Shown here: piece by piece, positions 20,890 to 57,257 of the stretch | How the letters are laid out: every line of letters starts with the position of its first letter | Position numbering within the stretch: position 1 is the stretch's first letter | Assembly (NCBI GenBank): GCA_963707645.1 | Contig: CAVPQW010000008.1 | Location: 3,547 to 67,546 of the forward strand | DNA from: an uncultured Actinomycetes bacterium | GTDB taxonomy: Bacteria; Actinomycetota; UBA4738; JACQTL01 | Length of the DNA stretch: 64,000 nucleotides | Direction: 5' to 3' | Notes under the pieces: model-generated | Databases searched by the model: none | The model's input: the letters and a program-made list of their open reading frames with translations, nothing else | Told to the model about the DNA's origin: nothing | Translations under genes and position numbers: made by a program

Positions 20890-21056
20890 CCGTGCGCGGC
20901 TCCCTTCCGGTCTCGTGCGGTGACGAAGCCCCACGGTACGGGCCGGGCAGCGATCCGAGCAACCGCGCGTCGTTTGAGTCGGCCCACGCTGACCTGCAAC
21001 AATGCGGCCCCACCGGCCGGAATCCACAGGGCCGGTCCCCACAGGGAGAGCTTGCG

Positions 21057-22821
21057 ATGACCGATCACCGTCCCTGGTTCGCGCAGTACCCGGAGGGCGT
21101 CCCGCACACGCTCGAGCCCTACCCGGAGAAGAACCTGTTCTCGCATCCTGGCGGAGTCGGCCGAGCGGCATCCCGGCGCGCCGGCCGTCGTGTGGTCGGT
21201 TCCGGGCGGCAAGACGCTCACGTACGCCGAGCTGCTGGCGCGAGACGGAGCGGTTCTCCGCGGTGCTCGCCGGCCTCGGCGTGAAGAAGGGCGACCGGGT
21301 CGCGCTGATCCTGCCGAACTGCCCCCAGTACGTGATCGCGTACTACGCGACGCGTTCGGATCGGCGGCGTGATCGTCGGGAACAACCCGCTGTACACGGC
21401 GCGCGAGCTCTCCCACCAGCTCAACGACTGCGGCGCCGAGGTCGTGGTCGTGCTCGACTCGCTGTGGCCCAACCTCAAGAACATCGAGAACGAGTACAAG
21501 CCGCGCGAGACCGTCGTCACGAGCGTCACCGACTACATGTCGTTCCCGATCAACATGCTCGCCCCGATGAAGCTGAAGAAGGAGGCAAAGCACGAGGGGC
21601 ACCCGTGGCCGCCCGTTCCCAAGGACGCGCCGGTCAGGTGGTGGAAGAAGGTCATGGGCTCGGCGGGCACGCCGCCGCCGGTCGCCGAGGTCGACGCGAA
21701 GAACGACCCCGCCGGGTTCATCTACACGGGCGGCACGACGGGCCTGTCCAAGGGCGCGATGCTCTCGCACTTCAACCTGGTGGCGAACGCCATGCAGGGC
21801 GCGGCGTGGTTCCCCCAGCTCGGCGACGGCACGGATTCGATGATGTGCGTGCTGCCGTTCTTCCATTCCTACGGCATGACGGTGTGCATGAACGTCGGCA
21901 TCCTCAGGGCGGCGAAGCTCGTGCTGATGCCGCGGTTCGTGCTCGAGGACACGCTGAAGGCCATCCAGAAGGAGCGCCCGACGATGTTCCCCGGCGTTCC
22001 CGCGCCTGTACATCGCGCTCAACGAGGCGGAGGAGACGAAGAAGTACGACATCACCTCGATCACGGCGTGCTTCTCGGGAGCGGCGGCCCTGCCCCTCGC
22101 GGTGGCGAAGAAGTTCGAGGGGCTGACCGGCTCGAGGGTGGTGGAGGGCTACGGCCTGACCGAGACCTCGCCGATCACGCACGCGAATCCCGTCGTCGGC
22201 GAGCGTCGCGAGGGGTTCATCGGGATCCCCATGCCGGACACCGACTGCAAGCTGGTCGACCTCGACGACGCCACCAAGGAGGTGCCTGAGGGCGAGCCCG
22301 GGGAGCTCGCCATCAGCGGTCCGCAGGTCATGCTCGGCTACTGGAACAAGCCCGACGAGACGGCCGGCATGATCAAGGAGGAGAACGGCGTCCGGTGGCT
22401 GTACACCGGCGACGTCGCGCAGCTCGACGAGACGGGATGGTTCAAGATCGTCGACCGGAAGAAGGAGATGATCATCGTCTCCGGGTTCAACGTGTACCCG
22501 ACCGACATCGAACAGGCGCTGTACCACAACCCCAAGATCGAGAAGGTGGCGGTCGTGGGCGTCCCGGATGAGACGACCGGCGAGGCCGTGAAGGCGTTCA
22601 TCGTCCTCCGCAAGGGTGAGACCGCGACCCCCGAGGAGATCATCAAGTGGAGCCGGAACGAGCTCACCGGCTACCGCGTCCCCAAGCAGGTCGAGTTCCG
22701 CGACTCGCTGCCCGAGACGCTGGTCGGCAAGGTACTGCGCCGGGTCCTGGTCGAAGAGGAGAAGCAGAAGCAGAAGGAAGCAGCCGCCTCGGGTTCCGGT
22801 TCGGGGTCGAGCTCGGGCTGA
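21057..22821 (+). pseudogene. Long-chain acyl-CoA synthetase (AMP-dependent ligase, FadD-like); frame broken about 4 times as assembled
   Basis: ATG 21057 (MTDHRPWFAQYPEGVP...). Pieces lie in ORFs 20892..21284, 21190..21372, 21002..22126, 21369..22289 and 22102..22821. AMP-binding motif FIYTGGTTGLSKGAMLSH, plus GYGLTETSP and YTGDVAQLDETGWFKIVDRKKE. Frame changes near 21148, 21243, 21355 and 22000. Confidence 0.85.
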
Positions 22822-22908: not shown

Positions 22909-23160
22909 ATGGCGAGGTTGACGGGCGTGGTGGCGAGGAGCAACGCTCCGGCCCAGGGTGCGTATGTGCAGCTGCGGAACCTCGGCGGGGACTTCCAGGC
23001 AGAGATCCGGACGGGCGAAGACGGGAAGTACACGTTCCACCCGGTGCCCGGGCAGTGGCGGCTGGTGTGGTTCGCCCCGCAGACGGCGATCACCGAGCGC
23101 GTCGTCGAGGTGGCCGATGACGACGACGACATGGTGGTCGACCTCACGCTCGAGGAGTAG
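22909..23160 (+). CDS. DUF1416 (SseC-like) small protein associated with sulfur metabolism
   Basis: 83 aa. LTGVVARSNAPAQGAYVQLRNLGGDFQAEIRTGEDGKYTFHPVPGQWRLVWF parallels the mycobacterial SseC/DUF1416 pattern (ITGRV...GAFVRLLDSS.EFTAEV...G.FRFFAAPG.W.L). Confidence 0.7.
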   Translation: MARLTGVVARSNAPAQGAYVQLRNLGGDFQAEIRTGEDGKYTFHPVPGQWRLVWFAPQTAITERVVEVADDDDDMVVDLTLEE

Positions 23161-23195
23161 CGTCCGGCCCTTCAGGAGGGATTCCTCCGTTCCGA

Positions 23196-23224
23196 TTGAC
23201 AGGGAACTGAGGTGCCGGTACGTT
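23196..23224 (+). promoter_or_regulatory. Sigma-70/SigA-like promoter TTGACA-N17-TACGTT
   Basis: TTGACA at 23196-23201, a 17-nt spacer, TACGTT at 23219-23224. Such matches are rare in this GC-rich DNA. It lies about 265 nt upstream of sirA. Confidence 0.5.
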
Positions 23225-23269
23225 GCAGGTGCAATTCCCCATCCAGTTGATCGGATTCGGGTACAGCTC

Positions 23270-23383
23270 ATGATTCGAACGAGGTGCTACGGAGTCGTCG
23301 GGGCCATGATCCCCAGCCGCATGTGCGCCTGTCCCGGCGTTCCGTGCCTGCCGGAGGGCACGGAGGAGGCGGTGCGGCCGTAG
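23270..23383 (+). CDS. Candidate Cys-rich leader peptide (37 aa) of the sulfite reductase operon
   Basis: ATG 23270 to TAG 23381-23383: MIRTRCYGVVGAMIPSRMCACPGVPCLPEGTEEAVRP. It contains 4 Cys codons. Its last codons form one strand of an antiterminator (see findings). Confidence 0.4.
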   Translation: MIRTRCYGVVGAMIPSRMCACPGVPCLPEGTEEAVRP

Positions 23384-23416
23384 CAACCCACATCCGGTAG
23401 ATCGAACACCACCCAC

Positions 23417-23450
23417 GGGCCGCACCAGCAAGCGGCTCGTTTTTCTTTCC
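23417..23450 (+). terminator. Intrinsic terminator/attenuator 38 nt upstream of the sirA start
   Basis: Stem GGGCCGC (23417-23423) / GCGGCTC (23432-23438), 7 bp including one G-U, with loop ACCAGCAA. It is followed by GTTTTTCTTTCC, an unusual T-run for this sequence. Confidence 0.55.
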
Positions 23451-23488
23451 CGGGTTGGCGACGGATCTGCCGGAGGTGTGCACCAGCG

Positions 23489-25148
23489 ATGACGGAGGAC
23501 CGGAAATACGGGGGCGGCGAACGCCGTCCGCTTCGGCCCGAGCCCACGTGGGACGAGGTCCTCGAGCGCAACGCGATCGAGCGGCTGAAGCGGGACCGTC
23601 CCCCGGTGGATGCGTTGCAGGATCTGCCTTCGTTGGCCGCGACCCACTACCTCGACATCCCCGAGGAGGAGCTCGTCCGGCTGAAGTGGCACGGGCTGTA
23701 CCACGACAAGCCCAAGGTCGGGTCGTTCATGCTCCGGATCAAGGTCCCCGCGGGTGTGCTGTCGCCCTCGGGGCTGCGGGCGATCGGGTCGGTCTCGCAG
23801 CGGTACGGCGAGGGGTCGGCCGAGCTGTCGACCCGGCAGAACGTCCAGTTGCACTTCGTTCGGCTCCCGGACGTGCCGGCGATCCTGGATGAACTCGCGG
23901 CGGCGGGGCTGACCACCGCGGGAGCGTGCGGCGACGCGGTCCGGAACATCACCGGGTGCCCCTTGCAGGGCGTGCTGGCCGGCGAGGCGTTCGACGTGAC
24001 GCCGGTGGTCGACGAGGCGGCGCGGTTCTTCTACGGGCACCGCGTGTACATGGACCTGCCGCGCAAGCACAAGATCACGATCAGTGCGTGCCCGGCGCAG
24101 TGCGACATGCCGGAGATCAACTGCATCGCGTTGATCGGTCTGGTGCGGGACGGCGTGAACGGGTTCGCCGTGCGGGTGGGCGGCGGGCTCTCGACGGTGC
24201 CGCGGCTGTCGCGCGACCTCGGCGTGTGGATCCCGGTCGAGGATGCGATGCCGGTGATGCAGGCGCTGCTCGACGCGTGGCGCGAGGATCGGCGCTACCG
24301 CATCTCGCGCGTGAAGGCCCGGATGAAGTTCTGGGTCGACGACCATGGCATCGAGGCGATCCGCGCGATGGTGGAGGAACGGCTGGGGCGCTCCCTCGAC
24401 GGACGGCGCCGCGCCGGAGGCGGTCGGGTTCGCCGACCACATGGGCGTGTTCGAACAGGGCGACGGGCAGTTCCACGTCGGGGTTCCGGTGCCGCTCGGG
24501 CTGTCGTCCGGGTCGCAGCTGATGGCGATCGCTGGCCTTGCCGAGGAGGCCGGCGGCGACGTTCGGCTGACCAAGCAGCAGAACCTGATCCTGGCGAACG
24601 TCGCGGCCGACCGGGTCGACCACGTGGTCGCAGCGCTGGATGAGCTCGGTCTGCCCGTCGACGCCAACCTGTTGCGGGCCACGGCCATCGCGTGCACGGG
24701 TGAGCCCCACTGCAACTACTCGGTGACCGAGACCAAGGGTCGGATGCGCGGCCTGCTCGCGCATCTCGAGGGACGGTGGGGAACCTCGCTCGGATCGTTC
24801 CAGGTGAACCTCGACGGGTGCCCGCACGCCTGCGCCCTGCACTGGGTCGGTGACATCGGGCTGATGGGAACGACGAGCCGGGAGCCGGTCGAGGGGTCGA
24901 AGCAGGCCTTCGACGTGTTCCTGCGGGGCGGCGTCGGGCCGCTCCAGGCGATCGCCCGGCCGCTCGTCCGGCGGGTCCCCACGGGGCGGCTCGAGGAAGC
25001 CGTGGACGGGCTGATCGAGGGATGGATCGCCGGGCGGGCAGACGGCGAGTCGTTCCGGGACTTCTGCATCCGGACCCCGGACGAGGAGCTCCAGGCGCTG
25101 GCGGGCGGTTCCGCCGCCCGGGCTGCGACGGGAGGCGAGGCGGCATGA
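23489..25148 (+). CDS. sirA: Ferredoxin-dependent assimilatory sulfite reductase (NirA/SirA type); one frameshift near 24390 as assembled
   Basis: ORFs 23489..24643 and 24345..25148 join into one sirA-like protein. LKWHGLYHDKPKVGSFMLRIKVPAG, TRQNVQLH, ACGDAVRNITGCP, and the siroheme/4Fe-4S motif TGEPHCNYS...DGCPHACA. The frame change coincides with a G-run (ctggggcgc). Confidence 0.9.
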
Positions 25149-25208: not shown

Positions 25209-25972
25209 GTGATCGACGTGACGGTGCTCGACGAGTACGAGGCCGGCGAGCTCTCCGTGCTCTACGACGACGCGCCCGCCCAGGAGGTCCTGGAGTGGGC
25301 GCTCGACCGGTTCCACCCGCGGATGGCCATCTCGGAGGGCGGCGGCGCCGAGGGCATGGCCATCCTCGACATGGCCGTGCGGATCCGGGACGACGTCCGC
25401 GTGTTCACGATCGACACCGGCCGTCTGCCGCAGGAGACGTACGACCTCATGGAGAACGTCCGAAAGCGGTACGGGATCCAGGTCGAGGTGCTGTTCCCGG
25501 ATACGGCGGCGGTCGAGGGCCTGGTGAACCGCCACGGGCCGAACCTCATGTACCAGGCCGTGGACATGCGCCTGCTGTGCTGCCAGGTCCGGAAGGTCCA
25601 GCCGCTGGTGAAGCACCTGAGCGGCCTCGACGCGTGGGCCACCGGGCTGCGCCGCGAGCAGTGGGCGTCGCGGGCGGAGGTTCGCAAGATCGAGATCGAC
25701 CACGACCACGGCGGCATCGCCAAGATCAACCCGCTCGCCGACTGGACCAAGGCCGAGGTGTGGGGCGTACATCAAGGCGAACGACGTCCCGTACCACGCG
25801 CTGTTCGACCAGGGCTACACGTCGATCGGCTGCGCGCCGTGCACCCGGCCGATCGCCGAGGGCGAGCAGGACCGCGCCGGCCGGTGGTGGTGGGAGAAGA
25901 ACGCGCCCAAGGAGTGCGGCATCCACTGCGCGATCAACACCGGCGGGTTCGAACACGAGCTCAAGGCGCTGA
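25209..25972 (+). CDS. cysH: Adenylyl-sulfate (APS)/PAPS reductase CysH, Fe-S type; frameshift near 25768 and 3' end unresolved
   Basis: GTG 25209 with GGAAGGAGG RBS. FTIDTGRLPQETY, the CC pair (LLCCQVRKV), then after a frame change YIKANDVPYHALFDQGYTSIGCAPCTRP...RWWWEKNAPKECGIH. The post-shift frame has no nearby stop, so the end coordinate is a guess at the nearest TGA in an adjacent frame. Confidence 0.8.
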
Positions 25973-26080
25973 TCGGCGACGGCGACGGCCGCCGCGGAGC
26001 CGCTCTCCGTCGACGGCGACGTGGTGACGCTCGAGCGCCGCCGCGTCCGCCCCGGTCACGGACCCCGAGGAGGAGGTCGC

Positions 26081-26548
26081 ATGAAGCTGGCGGAGGCGGA
26101 CCGGGAAGTCGTCGTGTCCGAGGCACTCGCGGTGGCGGAGGAGCTTCCGCCGGGCGAGACGCGCGCGGAGTTCCAGGAGCTTGCGTACGCGGCGGAACAG
26201 GGCGAGGTGCCGGGCGACCTGGCCGGGCGGCTCGGCGAGCTGGCAGCGGTTGCCCTCGAGACCGGACGGGCCCGGGCGGTGCACGGTCCGGACGGGGTTC
26301 GGTCGCTGACCGGCGTGTGGCGGGAGACGCCGCAGGGTCGCGCGGTGGCCGAGGACGTCGAGGGGCTGAACTCGGCGCTCCGCGCCGTGCGCGGGCACCC
26401 GATCGAGAACGTGCGTGTCGCGGTGACGTCGCCGGGTTCGTATTCGCTGGTGATTGCCGCCGGCCCGTACGAGCTTCGGGTGGCACTGGATCGGGCCGGC
26501 GCCTCCCTGCGTTCGGTGAACGTCGGCGGCGGCGGGAGCGGGGAGTAG
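26081..26548 (+). CDS. Hypothetical protein embedded in the sulfite reductase/siroheme operon
   Basis: ATG 26081 preceded by GAGGAGGAGG, inside ORF 26021..26548. MKLAEADREVVVSEALAVAEELPPGETRAEFQELAYAAEQGEVPGDLAGRLGELAAVALETG... has a balanced acidic composition. No family recognised. Confidence 0.55.
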   Translation: MKLAEADREVVVSEALAVAEELPPGETRAEFQELAYAAEQGEVPGDLAGRLGELAAVALETGRARAVHGPDGVRSLTGVWRETPQGRAVAEDVEGLNSALRAVRGHPIENVRVAVTSPGSYSLVIAAGPYELRVALDRAGASLRSVNVGGGGSGE

Positions 26549-26555
26549 CGCTCGG

Positions 26556-27270
26556 ATGGCGTTCGGCTATCCGGTGTTCCTGGAGCTCGAGGGTCGGCTC
26601 GTCGTCGTGATCGGCGAGGACGCCGTCCGCGCCGGGAAGGCGGATGGCGCTGCTCGACGCCGGCGCCAGGGTCACGGTCGTCGCGGCCGGTCCGGAGCGG
26701 CGGTTGCAGCAGCTGGAAGGTCGCGGCGCGTCGGTGGAACGGCGCGACTATCTCCCGGGCGACCTTGCGGGCGTATTCCTCTGCGTGGCGGCGTCCTCCG
26801 ATCCGGCCGTGCGTTCCTCGATCGCGGCTGAGGCCCGGGCCCGCGGGGTTCTGGTGAACGTGATGGACGACATCCCCAACTGCGACTTCGCGGCGCCGGC
26901 GGTGGTTCGTCGGGGCGACCTGCAGGTCGCGATCGGAACCGGAGGCCGTTCCCCGGCGCTGGCCCGGCGTCTGCGCGAGGAGCTTTCGGAACGCTACGGC
27001 CCGGAGTGGACGGAAGCCGTCCGGGTCATCGGCGACGTGCGCAGCGACACGCTCCCCGCGCTCCCCGACCTCGAGGACCGCGCCCAGCGATGGGCGGCGG
27101 CGCTCGATCTCGAGGAGCTGCTCCGACTCGTCAGCGAAGGGCGCTCGGCGGAGGCCGCCGGGCGCCTCACGGCCCGCCTCCTCACCAACCCCCCGGAGGA
27201 TGGCGAACCGACCGGTCCGGGCCGGGCTGACGCCCGGCCCGCACCGGTCTCCCAGGGAGCCCCGGTGTGA
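26556..27270 (+). CDS. Precorrin-2 dehydrogenase / sirohydrochlorin ferrochelatase (SirC/Met8/CysG N-domain-like); one frameshift near 26640
   Basis: MAFGYPVFLELEGRLVVVIGEDAVRAGK (Rossmann) in ORF 26556..26831 continues as ALLDAGARVTVVAAGP...VNVMDDIPNCDFAAPAVVRRGDLQVAIGTGGRSPALARRLREEL in ORF 26644..27270. Confidence 0.8.
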
Positions 27271-28073
27271 GGCTCGGGACCGTGTTCCTCGTGGGCGCGG
27301 GGCCGGGCGACCCTCGACTGCTCACGCTTCGCGGCGCCGAGCTGCTCCAGCGCGCCGACGTCGTCGTGCACGACCGACTGGCCCCCGCGGCGCTGCTCGC
27401 GCTCGCCCCGGCCGCCGCCGAGATCGTCGACGTCGGCAAGGGCGTCGGCCGTGGCCCTCGCCAGGAGGACATCTGCGACCTGCTGGTCGGCCTGGCCTTG
27501 CGAGGCCTGGACGTGGTCCGCCTGAAGGGCGGCGACCCGTTCGTGTTCGGCCGCGGGGGCGAGGAAGCGCTCGCCTGCGCTCGGGCCGGCGTTCCGTTCG
27601 AGGTGGTCCCCGGTGTCAGCTCGGCGGTCGCGGCCCCGGCGGCCGCCGGAATCCCGGTGACGCACCGGGGGGTGGCTGCCTCGTTCGCGGTGGTCACCGC
27701 CACGCTGTCGGGCGGCGCCGACAACGAGCTCGGCCGGGTCGCGGCGAACGTCGACACCGTCGTCGTGCTCATGGCCGCCGGGCGTCTCGACCGCGTGTGC
27801 CGCGCGGTGATCGACGCCGGCAGGTCCCCGGACGAACCGGCGGCCGCCGTTCAGTGGGCAACCACGCCCAGGCAACGAACAGTGGTCGGGACGCTCGCGA
27901 CGCTCCCGGAGCTCGCCCGCCGGGAGGGCGTCGGCGCGCCGGCGACGCTCGTCATCGGCCCAGTGGTCGATCTCGCGTTCGTGCTCGGAGCCGCCACGAG
28001 TCCCGCGGCGGCAGAGTCCGCCGGCGATGGTGGATCCGAGCACGAGGTCTTCTCCACCAGCACCTCCGCCTAG
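27267..28073 (+). CDS. cobA: Uroporphyrinogen-III C-methyltransferase (SUMT)
   Basis: GTG 27267 overlaps the upstream TGA (GTGA). VFLVGAGPGDPRLLTLRGAELLQRADVVVHD...RLKGGDPFVFGRGGEE...VPGVSSAVAAPAAAGIPVTHRG. Confidence 0.9.
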   Translation: MRLGTVFLVGAGPGDPRLLTLRGAELLQRADVVVHDRLAPAALLALAPAAAEIVDVGKGVGRGPRQEDICDLLVGLALRGLDVVRLKGGDPFVFGRGGEEALACARAGVPFEVVPGVSSAVAAPAAAGIPVTHRGVAASFAVVTATLSGGADNELGRVAANVDTVVVLMAAGRLDRVCRAVIDAGRSPDEPAAAVQWATTPRQRTVVGTLATLPELARREGVGAPATLVIGPVVDLAFVLGAATSPAAAESAGDGGSEHEVFSTSTSA

Positions 28074-55821: not shown

Positions 55822-55928
55822 GCCTCATCCAGAGAGGTGGAGGGACAGGCCCTGTGAAGCCTCGGCAACCCCGGACTGCGGGGTGCCAATTCCTGCCGGT
55901 GGTGATCGAGCCGCCGGAGAGATGAGGG
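55822..55928 (+). promoter_or_regulatory. SAM-I (S-box) riboswitch aptamer
   Basis: CUCAUCCAGAGAGGUGGAGGGACAGGCCCUGUGAAGCCUCGGCAACC...GGUGCCAAUUCCUGCC...GGAGAGAUGAG matches the S-box consensus almost box for box. Downstream lie a weak hairpin plus T-run (55962-55983) and an SD-sequestering hairpin CCTCCTC(55995-56001)/GAGGAGG(56010-56016). Confidence 0.85.
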
Positions 55929-56021: not shown

Positions 56022-57257
56022 ATGTCGCGTTACCTGGAAGGACTGCGGTGCCGGGCCTGCGATGCCCGCTACCCGGCCGAGGTTCGTTCGATCTGCGACG
56101 AGTGCTTCGGGCCGGTCGAGCCGTTCTACGACGAGGAACGCCTGCGCGCCGAGATCTCGCGTGAGGAGATCGCCGCTGGGCCCCGTTCCCTGTGGAGATA
56201 CGAGGCGCTGCTGCCCGCCACCCGGAACCCGGACGTCGACCTCGGGGATGGGTGGACTCCGCTCCGGCACGCCAAGCGGCTCGGCGCCGAGCTCGGGCTT
56301 CCGAACCTGTGGCTCAAGGACGAGACGCGGAACCCGACGCACTCGTTCAAGGACCGGGTCGTCTCGGTCGCGCTGACCAAGGCGGTCGAGTTCGGCTACG
56401 GAACCGTCGGGTGTGCGTCGACCGGCAACCTGGCGAACGCGGTTGCCGCCCACGCCGCGGCCGCCGGACTGCGAGCGGTCACCCTCGTGCCGCAAGGCCT
56501 CGAGCCGGCCAAGCTCACGGCGTCCGCCGTCTACGGCGCCACGCTGGTCGAGGTCGACGGGACCTACGACGACGTCCAGCGGTTGTGTTCCGAGGCCGAC
56601 GAGGAGCTCGAGACGTGGGCGTTCGTCAATGTGGGCCTGCGGCCGTACTACGCGGAGGGTTCCAAGACGATCGCTCTTGAGACCGCGGAGCAGCTCGGCT
56701 GGCGCGCGCCCGATCACGTCGTCGTGCCGGTCGCCTCCGGCGCGCTGCTCACCAAGGTCGCCGAGGGGTTCCGCCAGCTCCATCGCGTCGGCCTGCTCGA
56801 CGAGGAGCCCAACGTCCGCGTCTCCGGCGCCCAGGCGCAGGGCTGCTCCCCGGTCGCCTCCGCGTTCCTCGAGGGAAGCGACGAGGTGCGGCCCGTCCGC
56901 TACCCGGACACGATCGCGAAGTCCTTGGCGATCGGCGCCCCGGCCGATGGCTACTTCGCGCTGGACGAGGTCCGTCGCTCGAACGGCGCGCTCGCCGCCG
57001 TCACCGACGACGAGATCGTCGAGGCCGTCGGCCTGCTCGCCCGCACCGAGGGCGTCTTCGCGGAGACCGCGGGCGGCGTGACGATCGCCACGCTCCAGCG
57101 ACTTGCCTGTCTCGGCGTGGTCAAGCCGGACGAGACCGTCGTCGCGTACATCACCGGGATGGGACTGAAGACGCTCGACGGCTTCGGAACGAGGTTCGGC
57201 CTCGAGGCCACGATCGGCCCGAAGCTCGAAGCGCTCCTGGAGGCAGTCCCCGCGTAG
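56022..57257 (+). CDS. Threonine synthase-like PLP enzyme with N-terminal zinc ribbon (possibly MetM-type homocysteine-forming enzyme)
   Basis: 411 aa, intact. CRACDARYPAEVRSICDECFG zinc ribbon, PLP-lysine motif NPTHSFKDRV, and GCASTGNLANA. It lies directly behind the SAM-I riboswitch. Confidence 0.85.
   Translation: MSRYLEGLRCRACDARYPAEVRSICDECFGPVEPFYDEERLRAEISREEIAAGPRSLWRYEALLPATRNPDVDLGDGWTPLRHAKRLGAELGLPNLWLKDETRNPTHSFKDRVVSVALTKAVEFGYGTVGCASTGNLANAVAAHAAAAGLRAVTLVPQGLEPAKLTASAVYGATLVEVDGTYDDVQRLCSEADEELETWAFVNVGLRPYYAEGSKTIALETAEQLGWRAPDHVVVPVASGALLTKVAEGFRQLHRVGLLDEEPNVRVSGAQAQGCSPVASAFLEGSDEVRPVRYPDTIAKSLAIGAPADGYFALDEVRRSNGALAAVTDDEIVEAVGLLARTEGVFAETAGGVTIATLQRLACLGVVKPDETVVAYITGMGLKTLDGFGTRFGLEATIGPKLEALLEAVPA

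Follow-up and report, generated by a model that had tools for sequence, protein, structure and literature searches.

A predicted cysteine-responsive transcription attenuator ahead of the sulfite reductase gene sirA in uncultured Actinomycetota

The leader that precedes sirA, the gene for a ferredoxin-type sulfite reductase, in an uncultured Actinomycetes bacterium (assembly GCA_963707645.1, contig CAVPQW010000008.1) is probably a transcription attenuator of the classical trp/his type, in which a translating ribosome responds to cysteine. In the 64,000-nucleotide (nt) stretch analysed here, which we call the window, this leader consists of a promoter, a short upstream open reading frame (uORF) containing Cys codons, and an intrinsic terminator whose 5' arm (region 3) can pair either with its own 3' arm (region 4) or with a segment at the end of the uORF (region 2); the coordinates are collected in Table 1. 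A cysteine attenuator had been proposed in an earlier note on this DNA, and the proposal is now supported by the conservation of the uORF, of its Cys codons and of the 2:3 pairing, by coding selection on the uORF, and by the position of the stop codon near region 2. Of the refuting conditions set in that note, none that computation can address went against the proposal. We infer both the response to cysteine and the coupling of leader translation to transcription.

Comparison with relatives provides most of the evidence. The N-terminus of SirA, used as a query against genome and metagenome collections, returned 36 loci at 65-92% identity, all of them from uncultured Actinomycetota metagenome-assembled genomes (MAGs) or soil metagenomes, and the same scan gave many far more distant sirA homologues. 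All 35 close loci that have upstream DNA (31 distinct sequences) share one set of features, namely TTGACA, a uORF of 30-37 codons, a GC hairpin followed by a T tract, and a uORF-end segment that pairs with the 5' arm of the terminator; at the 36th, L010, the contig end truncates the leader and the terminator alone remains. The 31 distinct leaders were aligned from the -35 box through the sirA start (alignment A1), and counts out of 31 refer to these sequences. With a leader profile (nhmmer), the window gives a single copy (23231-23447), and 146 loci give one copy per close sirA locus and none elsewhere; sirA homologues of 46% identity or lower have none ahead of them. Since the leader stands at all close sirA loci while the upstream genes differ, it travels with sirA. 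A search of 23160-23500 against Rfam gave no match even at E <= 10. The MAG SMAG_U12266 has two copies of sirA on separate contigs, L010 (32-71) and L011 (2695-3003), both with the terminator; the leader of L011 is complete yet diverged at its 3' end, without a recognisable region 2.

The uORF itself was read directly in the window as 37 codons, with Cys at codons 6 (23285-23287), 19 (23324-23326), 21 (23330-23332) and 26 (23345-23347), exactly as the earlier note had it. Over codons 2-19 the ratio of nonsynonymous to synonymous variation (pN/pS) is 0.36 in the uORF frame versus 1.25 and 1.39 in the other two frames, and across the 31 sequences Arg3 and Arg5 are drawn from both CGN and AGR codons and Ser16 from both AGC and TCN. 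This evolutionary pattern indicates that the uORF is translated and under coding selection. Cys19 is retained in 30 of the 31 sequences and Cys20 in 27; the Cys run of the relatives reads CC, CCC, CCCC or CCCCC, and the total number of Cys residues per peptide ranges from 2 to 8. The Cys codons had been described as dispersed rather than poly-Cys, which is true of the window and of the few close relatives that share its C-A-C arrangement, but not of the family, whose consensus is two to five consecutive Cys codons. At least two consecutive Cys codons occur in 27/31 members, including the closest relative, L091 (92% SirA identity), which has CCC where the window has CAC. Because the relatives carry poly-Cys runs, the C-A-C of the window is a local variant of a poly-Cys leader. 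The Cys cluster is immediately adjacent to the segment pairing with region 2, or overlaps it.

Downstream of the uORF, a pattern scan finds a terminator stem of 9 base pairs (bp; ACGGGCCGC/GCGGCTCGT), 7 of them G-C, which encloses the 7-bp core recognised previously and is followed, after an 8-nt loop and the 3' arm, by TTTTTCTTTCC. The isolated hairpin has a predicted energy of -16.8 kcal/mol (z = -4.2 against dinucleotide shuffles). Over the 31 sequences the stem is paired in 96% of cells and every sequence has a T tract, whereas the spacer between terminator and sirA start varies freely from 22 to 81 nt across the family.

Region 2 competes for this stem. Its segment GGTGCGGCC (23371-23379) perfectly complements GGCCGCACC (23418-23426) over 9 bp, and the GC at 23369-23370 is able to pair with the GC at 23428-23429 past a bulged A. 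The extent of pairing is thus as first described, but region 2 ends 1 nt, not 2, before the TAG. Its partner takes in loop bases and 6/9 nt of the terminator 5' arm, and the claim that terminator and antiterminator are mutually exclusive therefore stands. A Watson-Crick run of 9 bp joining the uORF region to the 5' arm and loop of the terminator arose in 36 of 2000 dinucleotide shuffles (1.8%), and the energy of the 2:3 duplex in the window has p = 0.03 against shuffles. The complementarity in the window alone is modestly above chance; its conservation makes it convincing. The G(Y)GCGGCC of region 2 is nearly invariant in A1, and the 6-bp core of the antiterminator (columns 185-190 with 233-238) can form in 27-30 of the 31 sequences, with one compensatory change from G-C to A-U in L009 (GCGCGACC/GGUCGCGC). 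When the partner is slid by 1-3 columns, 39-53% of cells are paired, compared to 83% in the proposed register, and for 22/31 sequences no segment upstream pairs better with the terminator 5' arm than region 2 does.

In seven sequences (L003, L006, L008, L009, L077, L083 and L090) an indel has placed the stop codon 7 nt upstream of region 2, and these sequences keep G(Y)GCGGCC and usually also the downstream TAG, now out of frame. Region 2 remains intact even there and so is conserved as RNA. The offset from stop to core takes three values, +2 (22 sequences), +6 (2) and -12 (7), and in all three reading-frame arrangements the A site is no more than about 12 nt from the region-2 columns, a distance within a ribosome footprint; in L011 and L088 those columns contain no recognisable region 2. 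The stop codon is constrained to adjoin region 2, as masking by a terminating ribosome would require. Inspection of the alignment by eye also shows an SD-like (Shine-Dalgarno-like) GGAGG upstream of region 2 in about two thirds of the sequences.

Four further features had gone unremarked in the earlier note: regions 1 and 2 are predicted to form a hairpin, a second hairpin, which covaries, lies within the uORF, the first 18 residues are conserved as amino acids, and a loop and the spacer may pair as a pseudoknot. In the minimum free energy (MFE) structure of the window, 23316-23322 is paired with 23372-23378. Most sequences fold into a single long hairpin between the Cys run and region 2, with L011 and L088 as clear exceptions; the partner of region 2 in it is either the GCCGC of codons 16-17 or the Cys codons. 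The long hairpin has a mean z of -0.96 over the family, which is weak, while its 5-bp core GCCGC/GCGGC is paired in 25-29 of 31; in several relatives the MFE structure instead pairs region 2 with uORF codons 2-5, an arrangement that is lineage-specific and unconserved. The hairpin at the apex of this structure is paired in 89% of cells, with changes on both sides at four of its six pairs. Its loop is complementary to a motif in the spacer (z = -3.7 for the duplex in the window), and about 20/31 relatives have matching pairs, such as CUCGGA/UCCGAG, CCCGG/CCGGG and CUCGGG/CCCGAG; swapping the motifs across lineages gives p = 0.036. Since a loop-spacer helix would cross 2:3, it would form a pseudoknot, which we regard as possible.

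Based on these features, a scheme for the switch can be proposed. Leader RNA would start from a promoter about 40 nt upstream, and the uORF would be translated while the polymerase was still transcribing the leader. With ample Cys-tRNA(Cys), the ribosome would pass codons 19-21, reach the stop codon and cover region 2 (GGUGCGGCC); region 3 could then pair only with region 4, and the resulting hairpin with its U tract would terminate transcription before sirA. With scarce Cys-tRNA(Cys), the ribosome would stall on the Cys codons and cover region 1, the segment that could otherwise tie up region 2, leaving region 2 free about 50 nt downstream to pair with region 3 as it emerged, so that no terminator would form and transcription would read through into sirA, cysH and the siroheme genes. 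Without a ribosome, regions 1 and 2 would make the long hairpin and the terminator would form.

We examined this scheme by folding, with the ribosome represented as an unpaired mask on the leader. In the window the expected switch was obtained (free leader, terminator; ribosome on the Cys codons, antiterminator; ribosome on the stop codon, terminator), but most relatives do not show it at equilibrium. The predicted folds shift in the right direction, although thermodynamics alone does not reproduce the switch. Because equilibrium folding fails to give it in most relatives, the mechanism would have to be kinetic and rely on the order in which the RNA is made, like that of classical attenuators, and equilibrium masked folding was rejected as a decisive test for the same reason.

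A number of observations weigh against attenuation as proposed. With the mask at the Cys codons, the full leaders of 25/31 sequences stay in the terminator form at equilibrium. Among transcripts ending just after region 3, 2:3 is the MFE pairing in 4/31 when free, in 0/31 with the ribosome on the stop codon and in merely 12/31 with a Cys stall, and the model would accordingly depend on kinetics. Covariation in the antiterminator is thin (the core has a single compensatory event), its three outer pairs hold in only 11-18/31 sequences, and L011 and L088 are without a recognisable region 2. The 1:2 helix lacks covariation, the third position of its Arg codon varying uncompensated. The Cys cluster of the window itself is merely C-A-C, and its sirA is frameshifted (see below), so the operon may be defective here or the assembly error-prone. 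Finally, the classical model leaves two features of the peptide unexplained: the conservation of residues 2-18, and that of Cys6, at which a stall would favour termination.

Residues 2-18 (IRTRCYGxVGAMIP[SC]R) are kept as amino acids with abundant synonymous change, Cys6 being present in 25/31, while the C-terminal half of the peptide is weakly conserved and varies in length. This raises the possibility, which we consider rather unlikely, that the same architecture is operated by the nascent peptide, with residues 2-18 acting in the exit tunnel as an arrest or sensitising peptide and the stall at the Cys run depending on it. Such a leader might sense free cysteine, a thiol or a redox signal besides tRNA charging, and the loop-spacer pairing could give a pseudoknotted antiterminator. 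The low pN/pS of these residues would fit, as would the complementarity of loop and spacer with its co-varying motifs. In addition, with Cys19 in the A site, the best-conserved stretch, G-x-M-I-P-[SC]-R, would adjoin the peptidyl-transferase centre, in a geometry taken from SecM and TnaC. TnaC ends in Arg-Pro-stop, and R-P-stop ends most peptides in this family. However, the C-terminal VRP is better accounted for by conservation of region 2 at the RNA level, because its nucleotides are kept when out of frame; VRP-stop was accordingly set aside as a less likely TnaC-like arrest motif. The peptide bears no similarity to known arrest motifs, its residues could instead be conserved because RNA constraints overlap them or because the free peptide has a function, and the loop-spacer pairing, modestly supported by the swap test, is missing in about a third of the family. 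A ribosomal interaction has likewise been offered by Canestrari et al. for the conserved non-Cys residues of mycobacterial leaders. The classical model also does not account for the apical hairpin, the loop-spacer pairing, the conserved motif in the 5' untranslated region (5' UTR) or the GGAGG, and the last three, with the conservation of residues 2-18 and of Cys6, leave some limited room for a peptide-assisted variant of attenuation.

Purifying selection on the peptide, its obligate linkage to sirA and the conservation of Cys6 along with the Cys cluster could also be imagined to reflect a functional Cys-rich micro-protein, for instance a metal or Fe-S factor for sulfite reductase, with a constitutive partial terminator setting stoichiometry and no sensing at all. 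We find this very improbable. It gives no reason why region 2 should persist as RNA out of frame, match the terminator arm and show a compensatory change, or why the stop offsets should be fixed. The peptide is weakly conserved and of varying length in its C-terminal half, and its Cys count varies from 2 to 8. Moreover, a 41-amino-acid (aa) in-frame extension of the peptide, compared with 5.8 billion predicted proteins, gave just three matches, all unnamed proteins of 37 aa.

Control of translation rather than transcription is equally hard to credit. On this account the leader would act like mycobacterial Ms5788A, with the Cys tract pairing with the sirA ribosome-binding site (RBS) until a stalled ribosome released it, and the hairpin and T tract would be incidental or a pause site. 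Sequestration of this kind is the sole experimentally dissected Cys-uORF mechanism in Actinobacteria (bioRxiv 10.1101/834739), and a small open reading frame (sORF) rich in Cys lies at the orthologous sirA locus of M. smegmatis. In the 31 sequences, however, duplexes between the uORF and the sirA RBS are no better than in shuffles (mean z +0.35), and SD sequestration of sirA by the Cys tract was rejected on this test. The distance and sequence between terminator and sirA are free to vary while the hairpin and T tract are conserved in all, and the uORF here is predicted not to be leaderless.

The promoter elements lie where the earlier note had placed them (Table 1). The -35 TTGACA is identical in 31/31 relatives, each of which also has a -10-like hexamer (TAnnnT, GAGAAT or CAGACT) at about equal spacing. 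A generic sigma-70 consensus scan of the window did not call this promoter, because TACGTT agrees with TATAAT at only 3/6 positions; we take TACGTT to be compatible with the actinobacterial TANNNT form of the -10 element. Transcription would start near 23231-23233. The uORF start codon, mostly TTG or GTG in the relatives and ATG in the window, lies 27-45 nt past the -10 region with SD-like purines ahead of it, and the uORF thus has a 5' UTR by the predicted start of transcription. This 5' UTR holds a conserved motif, which in the window is separated from the ATG by about 10 extra nt. Its palindrome was rejected as a conserved hairpin, since the predictions are weak (-2 to -10 kcal/mol), the register is not fixed and covariation is absent.

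A trans-acting protein or small ligand that binds this motif or the covarying hairpin, in RNA or DNA, could conceivably set termination, the Cys codons then having no sensing role. The palindrome-like motif is conserved and overlaps the predicted transcript start, and the covarying hairpin is not strictly needed by the classical model. Nevertheless, no coding feature is better conserved than the Cys run, the leader matches no Rfam family at E <= 10, and the 5' motif, lacking covariation, could act alongside attenuation. We consider this explanation extremely improbable.

Table 1. Features of the leader and of the sirA operon (window coordinates)
Feature	Position	Strand	Details
Promoter	23196..23224	+	-35 TTGACA 23196-23201, 17-nt spacer, -10 TACGTT 23219-23224; read from the sequence
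Conserved 5'-UTR motif AATTCC...N12...GGATT	23233..23258	+	A1 columns 41-68; includes uORF SD-like purines
Leader-peptide uORF	23270..23383	+	ATG 23270 to TAG 23381-23383; 37 codons; MIRTRCYGVVGAMIPSRMCACPGVPCLPEGTEEAVRP
Region 1	23316..23332	+	GCCGCAT plus Cys-codon cluster, codons 16-21; partner is region 2
Hairpin inside uORF	23342..23363	+	CCGTGCC/GGCACGG, loop TGCCGGAG; apex of 1:2 structure; RNAalifold prediction
Region 2, antiterminator 5' strand	23369..23379	+	GCGGTGCGGCC; ends 1 nt before stop codon
Spacer motif TCCGGTAG	23393..23400	+	Complements uORF-hairpin loop CTGCCGGA (23348-23355); possible pseudoknot
Intrinsic terminator	23415..23450	+	5' arm 23415-23423 (region 3), loop 23424-23431, 3' arm 23432-23440 (region 4), T tract to 23450
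sirA SD GGAGG	23472-23476	+	sirA ATG at 23489
sirA, ferredoxin-type sulfite reductase	23489..25148	+	Pfam NIR_SIR, NIR_SIR_ferr on both halves
cysH	25209-26027	+	Pfam PAPS_reduct
Siroheme synthase N-terminal domain	26644-27270	+	NAD_binding_7 with Sirohm_synth_M
Uroporphyrinogen methyltransferase	27267-28073	+	TP_methylase

The genes from sirA to position 28073 are presumably under common control by the leader, to judge from their shared strand and close spacing, which suggest co-transcription. The identity of sirA, cysH and the siroheme genes, together with the cysteine response of the orthologous M. smegmatis locus, counts in favour of a cysteine attenuator. In the window, sirA is split by a +1 frameshift near 24398-24402 into overlapping ORFs at 23489-24643 and 24345-25148. 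A tblastn comparison with the intact SirA of L001 places the frame switch at 24397/24402, and the extra base lies within CTCGACGGACGGCGCC, where the relatives have ..CTGCAGGACGGCGCC..; their intact SirA is 548-553 aa long, or 580 aa in L146 as called. Either the gene is a pseudogene here or the assembly contains an indel. An AMP-binding (acyl-CoA synthetase-like) gene at 21002-22821 is likewise spread over three overlapping frames (21002-22126, 21369-22289 and 22102-22821), a hint of more indels and so of an assembly prone to error. The ORF at 26021-26548, which lies between cysH and the siroheme-synthase gene, has no Pfam match and may be either a spurious high-GC ORF or an unknown member of the operon. 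Directly upstream of the leader, at 22909-23160, lies a gene for a small DUF1416/CarboxypepD_reg-like protein, which is also found near the leader in L146 (4302-4553); the DUF1416 family accompanies thiosulfate sulfurtransferases in mycobacteria. The sole Rfam match at gathering level in the window is a SAM (S-box) riboswitch, RF00162, at 55822-55928 (+; 88.9 bits), followed at 56022-57257 by a gene for a pyridoxal phosphate (PLP)-dependent enzyme of the PALP family. The riboswitch is a second sulfur-related cis-regulator in the window and, as a case of terminator-based control elsewhere in this genome, speaks for the attenuator.

Cysteine was long without a described leader-peptide attenuator (Canestrari et al. 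2020; bioRxiv 10.1101/834739). The sirA leaders would provide a transcriptional counterpart for cysteine to a mycobacterial mechanism that is translational and leaderless, and in this clade of uncultured soil Actinomycetota they would control the committed, reductive steps by which sulfate is assimilated. The family offers about 30 natural variants in which the number and arrangement of Cys codons needed could be tested, and the conserved peptide and extra RNA contacts could reveal peptide-assisted sensing. The motif may also be used for annotating the regulation of sirA operons in MAGs. Annotators miss a real gene of 30-37 codons here, with three such peptides among 5.8 billion predicted proteins.

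Cys-rich uORFs are also seen ahead of distant sirA homologues. In Phaeodactylibacter (Bacteroidota), L059 has a uORF encoding MKPASFCQFCCCCCCM.. (2494-2577), then a hairpin at 2601-2630 with TTATTATT, and a second uORF, ..MACCCPCRK.. (2645-2770), then a hairpin at 2772-2808 with TTTTTCTT (-32 kcal/mol), the gene starting at 2866. A similar pair of uORFs stands in L060 (about 2490-2830), and L055 (2788-2889) and L062 (2831-2896) encode ..RCCCCRCTAT* and ..RYCCCCR*, respectively. These poly-Cys uORFs are unrelated to the actinobacterial leaders and look like convergent Cys attenuators in another phylum. The metagenomic locus L092, which is unassigned, of lower GC and with a sirA homologue at 46% identity, has TTGACA at 2112, a uORF at 2179 encoding ..KRMCFCCCMPAF.., and a hairpin at 2295-2323 followed by TTTTAATTTTTT (-24 kcal/mol) just ahead of the ATG at 2345. 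Small ORFs containing CC occur upstream of distant sirA loci in 16/106 cases on the gene strand versus 7/106 on the opposite strand. A broader reading would join several of these threads: an N-terminal peptide of 18 residues that tunes or gates, from within the exit tunnel, the stall at the Cys run as a cysteine or thiol sensor, an antiterminator locked by a pseudoknot, and independent origins, in several phyla, of Cys leaders with terminators ahead of sulfite reductase genes. Taken as a whole this is unlikely.

Among the closest known systems are mycobacterial leaders. Canestrari et al. (2020, Mol Microbiol 114:93; bioRxiv 10.1101/834739) described leaderless poly-Cys sORFs in M. smegmatis, with SD sequestration at Ms5788. 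The sirA locus of that species (Ms4527) has a Cys-rich sORF, Ms4527A, and its protein rises on cysteine limitation, the authors leaving it undetermined whether control is transcriptional or translational (bioRxiv 10.1101/834739). The mycobacterial sORFs and the present leader have in common a short Cys-clustered ORF ahead of cysteine or sulfur operons in Actinomycetota, the orthologous sirA locus included, a stall at Cys codons that is shown or proposed to relieve repression, and conservation of some non-Cys residues. They differ in that the mycobacterial sORFs are leaderless, with a C-terminal Cys run and a Cys tract that pairs with the downstream SD, whereas the present uORF has a predicted 5' UTR of 22-40 nt, an internal Cys run about 50 nt before the stop, and a conserved terminator and antiterminator. 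The last of these contrasts had been drawn in the earlier note and extends across the relatives. By eye, the peptide has no evident similarity to Ms4527A (VTSARNSITGSLVARRHVDKRVCSCCCLP).

Two predictions by others come near as well. Seliverstov et al. (2005, BMC Microbiol 5:54; PMC1262725) predicted Cys leader peptides that lacked obvious terminators in Mycobacterium, P. acnes and B. longum, and suggested a Rho-dependent mechanism (PMC1262725). Those leaders share with ours short ORFs with Cys runs upstream of actinobacterial cysteine genes; ours differ in having an explicit, conserved terminator/antiterminator pair. The uORFC-8-2 motif before cysS in Rhodobacterales, a predicted attenuator (Brewer et al. 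2021, RNA Biol 18:2417; PMC8632094), resembles the present leader in having tandem Cys codons within a stem, followed by an intrinsic terminator; it belongs to another phylum and to a Cys-tRNA synthetase gene rather than to sulfate assimilation, and its peptide is shorter, with Cys at 14-15. With these three precedents (Seliverstov, Canestrari and Brewer), a mechanism of this kind is already known.

As with the arrest peptides TnaC and SecM, the peptide is conserved N-terminal to the presumed stall site, and most members end like TnaC in Arg-Pro-stop; there is no sequence similarity, and the Arg-Pro-stop nucleotides are kept here out of frame, pointing to RNA pairing. In the trp attenuation model, the helices 1:2, 2:3 and 3:4 are alternatives. 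The same alternative helices, of which 1:2 is here a predicted one, and the GC hairpin with its U tract are common to the classical attenuators and to this leader, and as in trpL of E. coli, hisL of Salmonella, and trpL and ilvL of Streptomyces and Corynebacterium, the regulatory uORF codons lie in region 1 and the stop codon by region 2. Many Streptomyces leader peptides are reported as leaderless; this one is predicted not to be. Unlike the classical attenuators, the present leader would sense cysteine, has an extra covarying hairpin between the regulatory codons and region 2, and keeps 17 non-regulatory residues as peptide. The family itself is undescribed, and would represent textbook transcriptional attenuation applied to sulfate assimilation.

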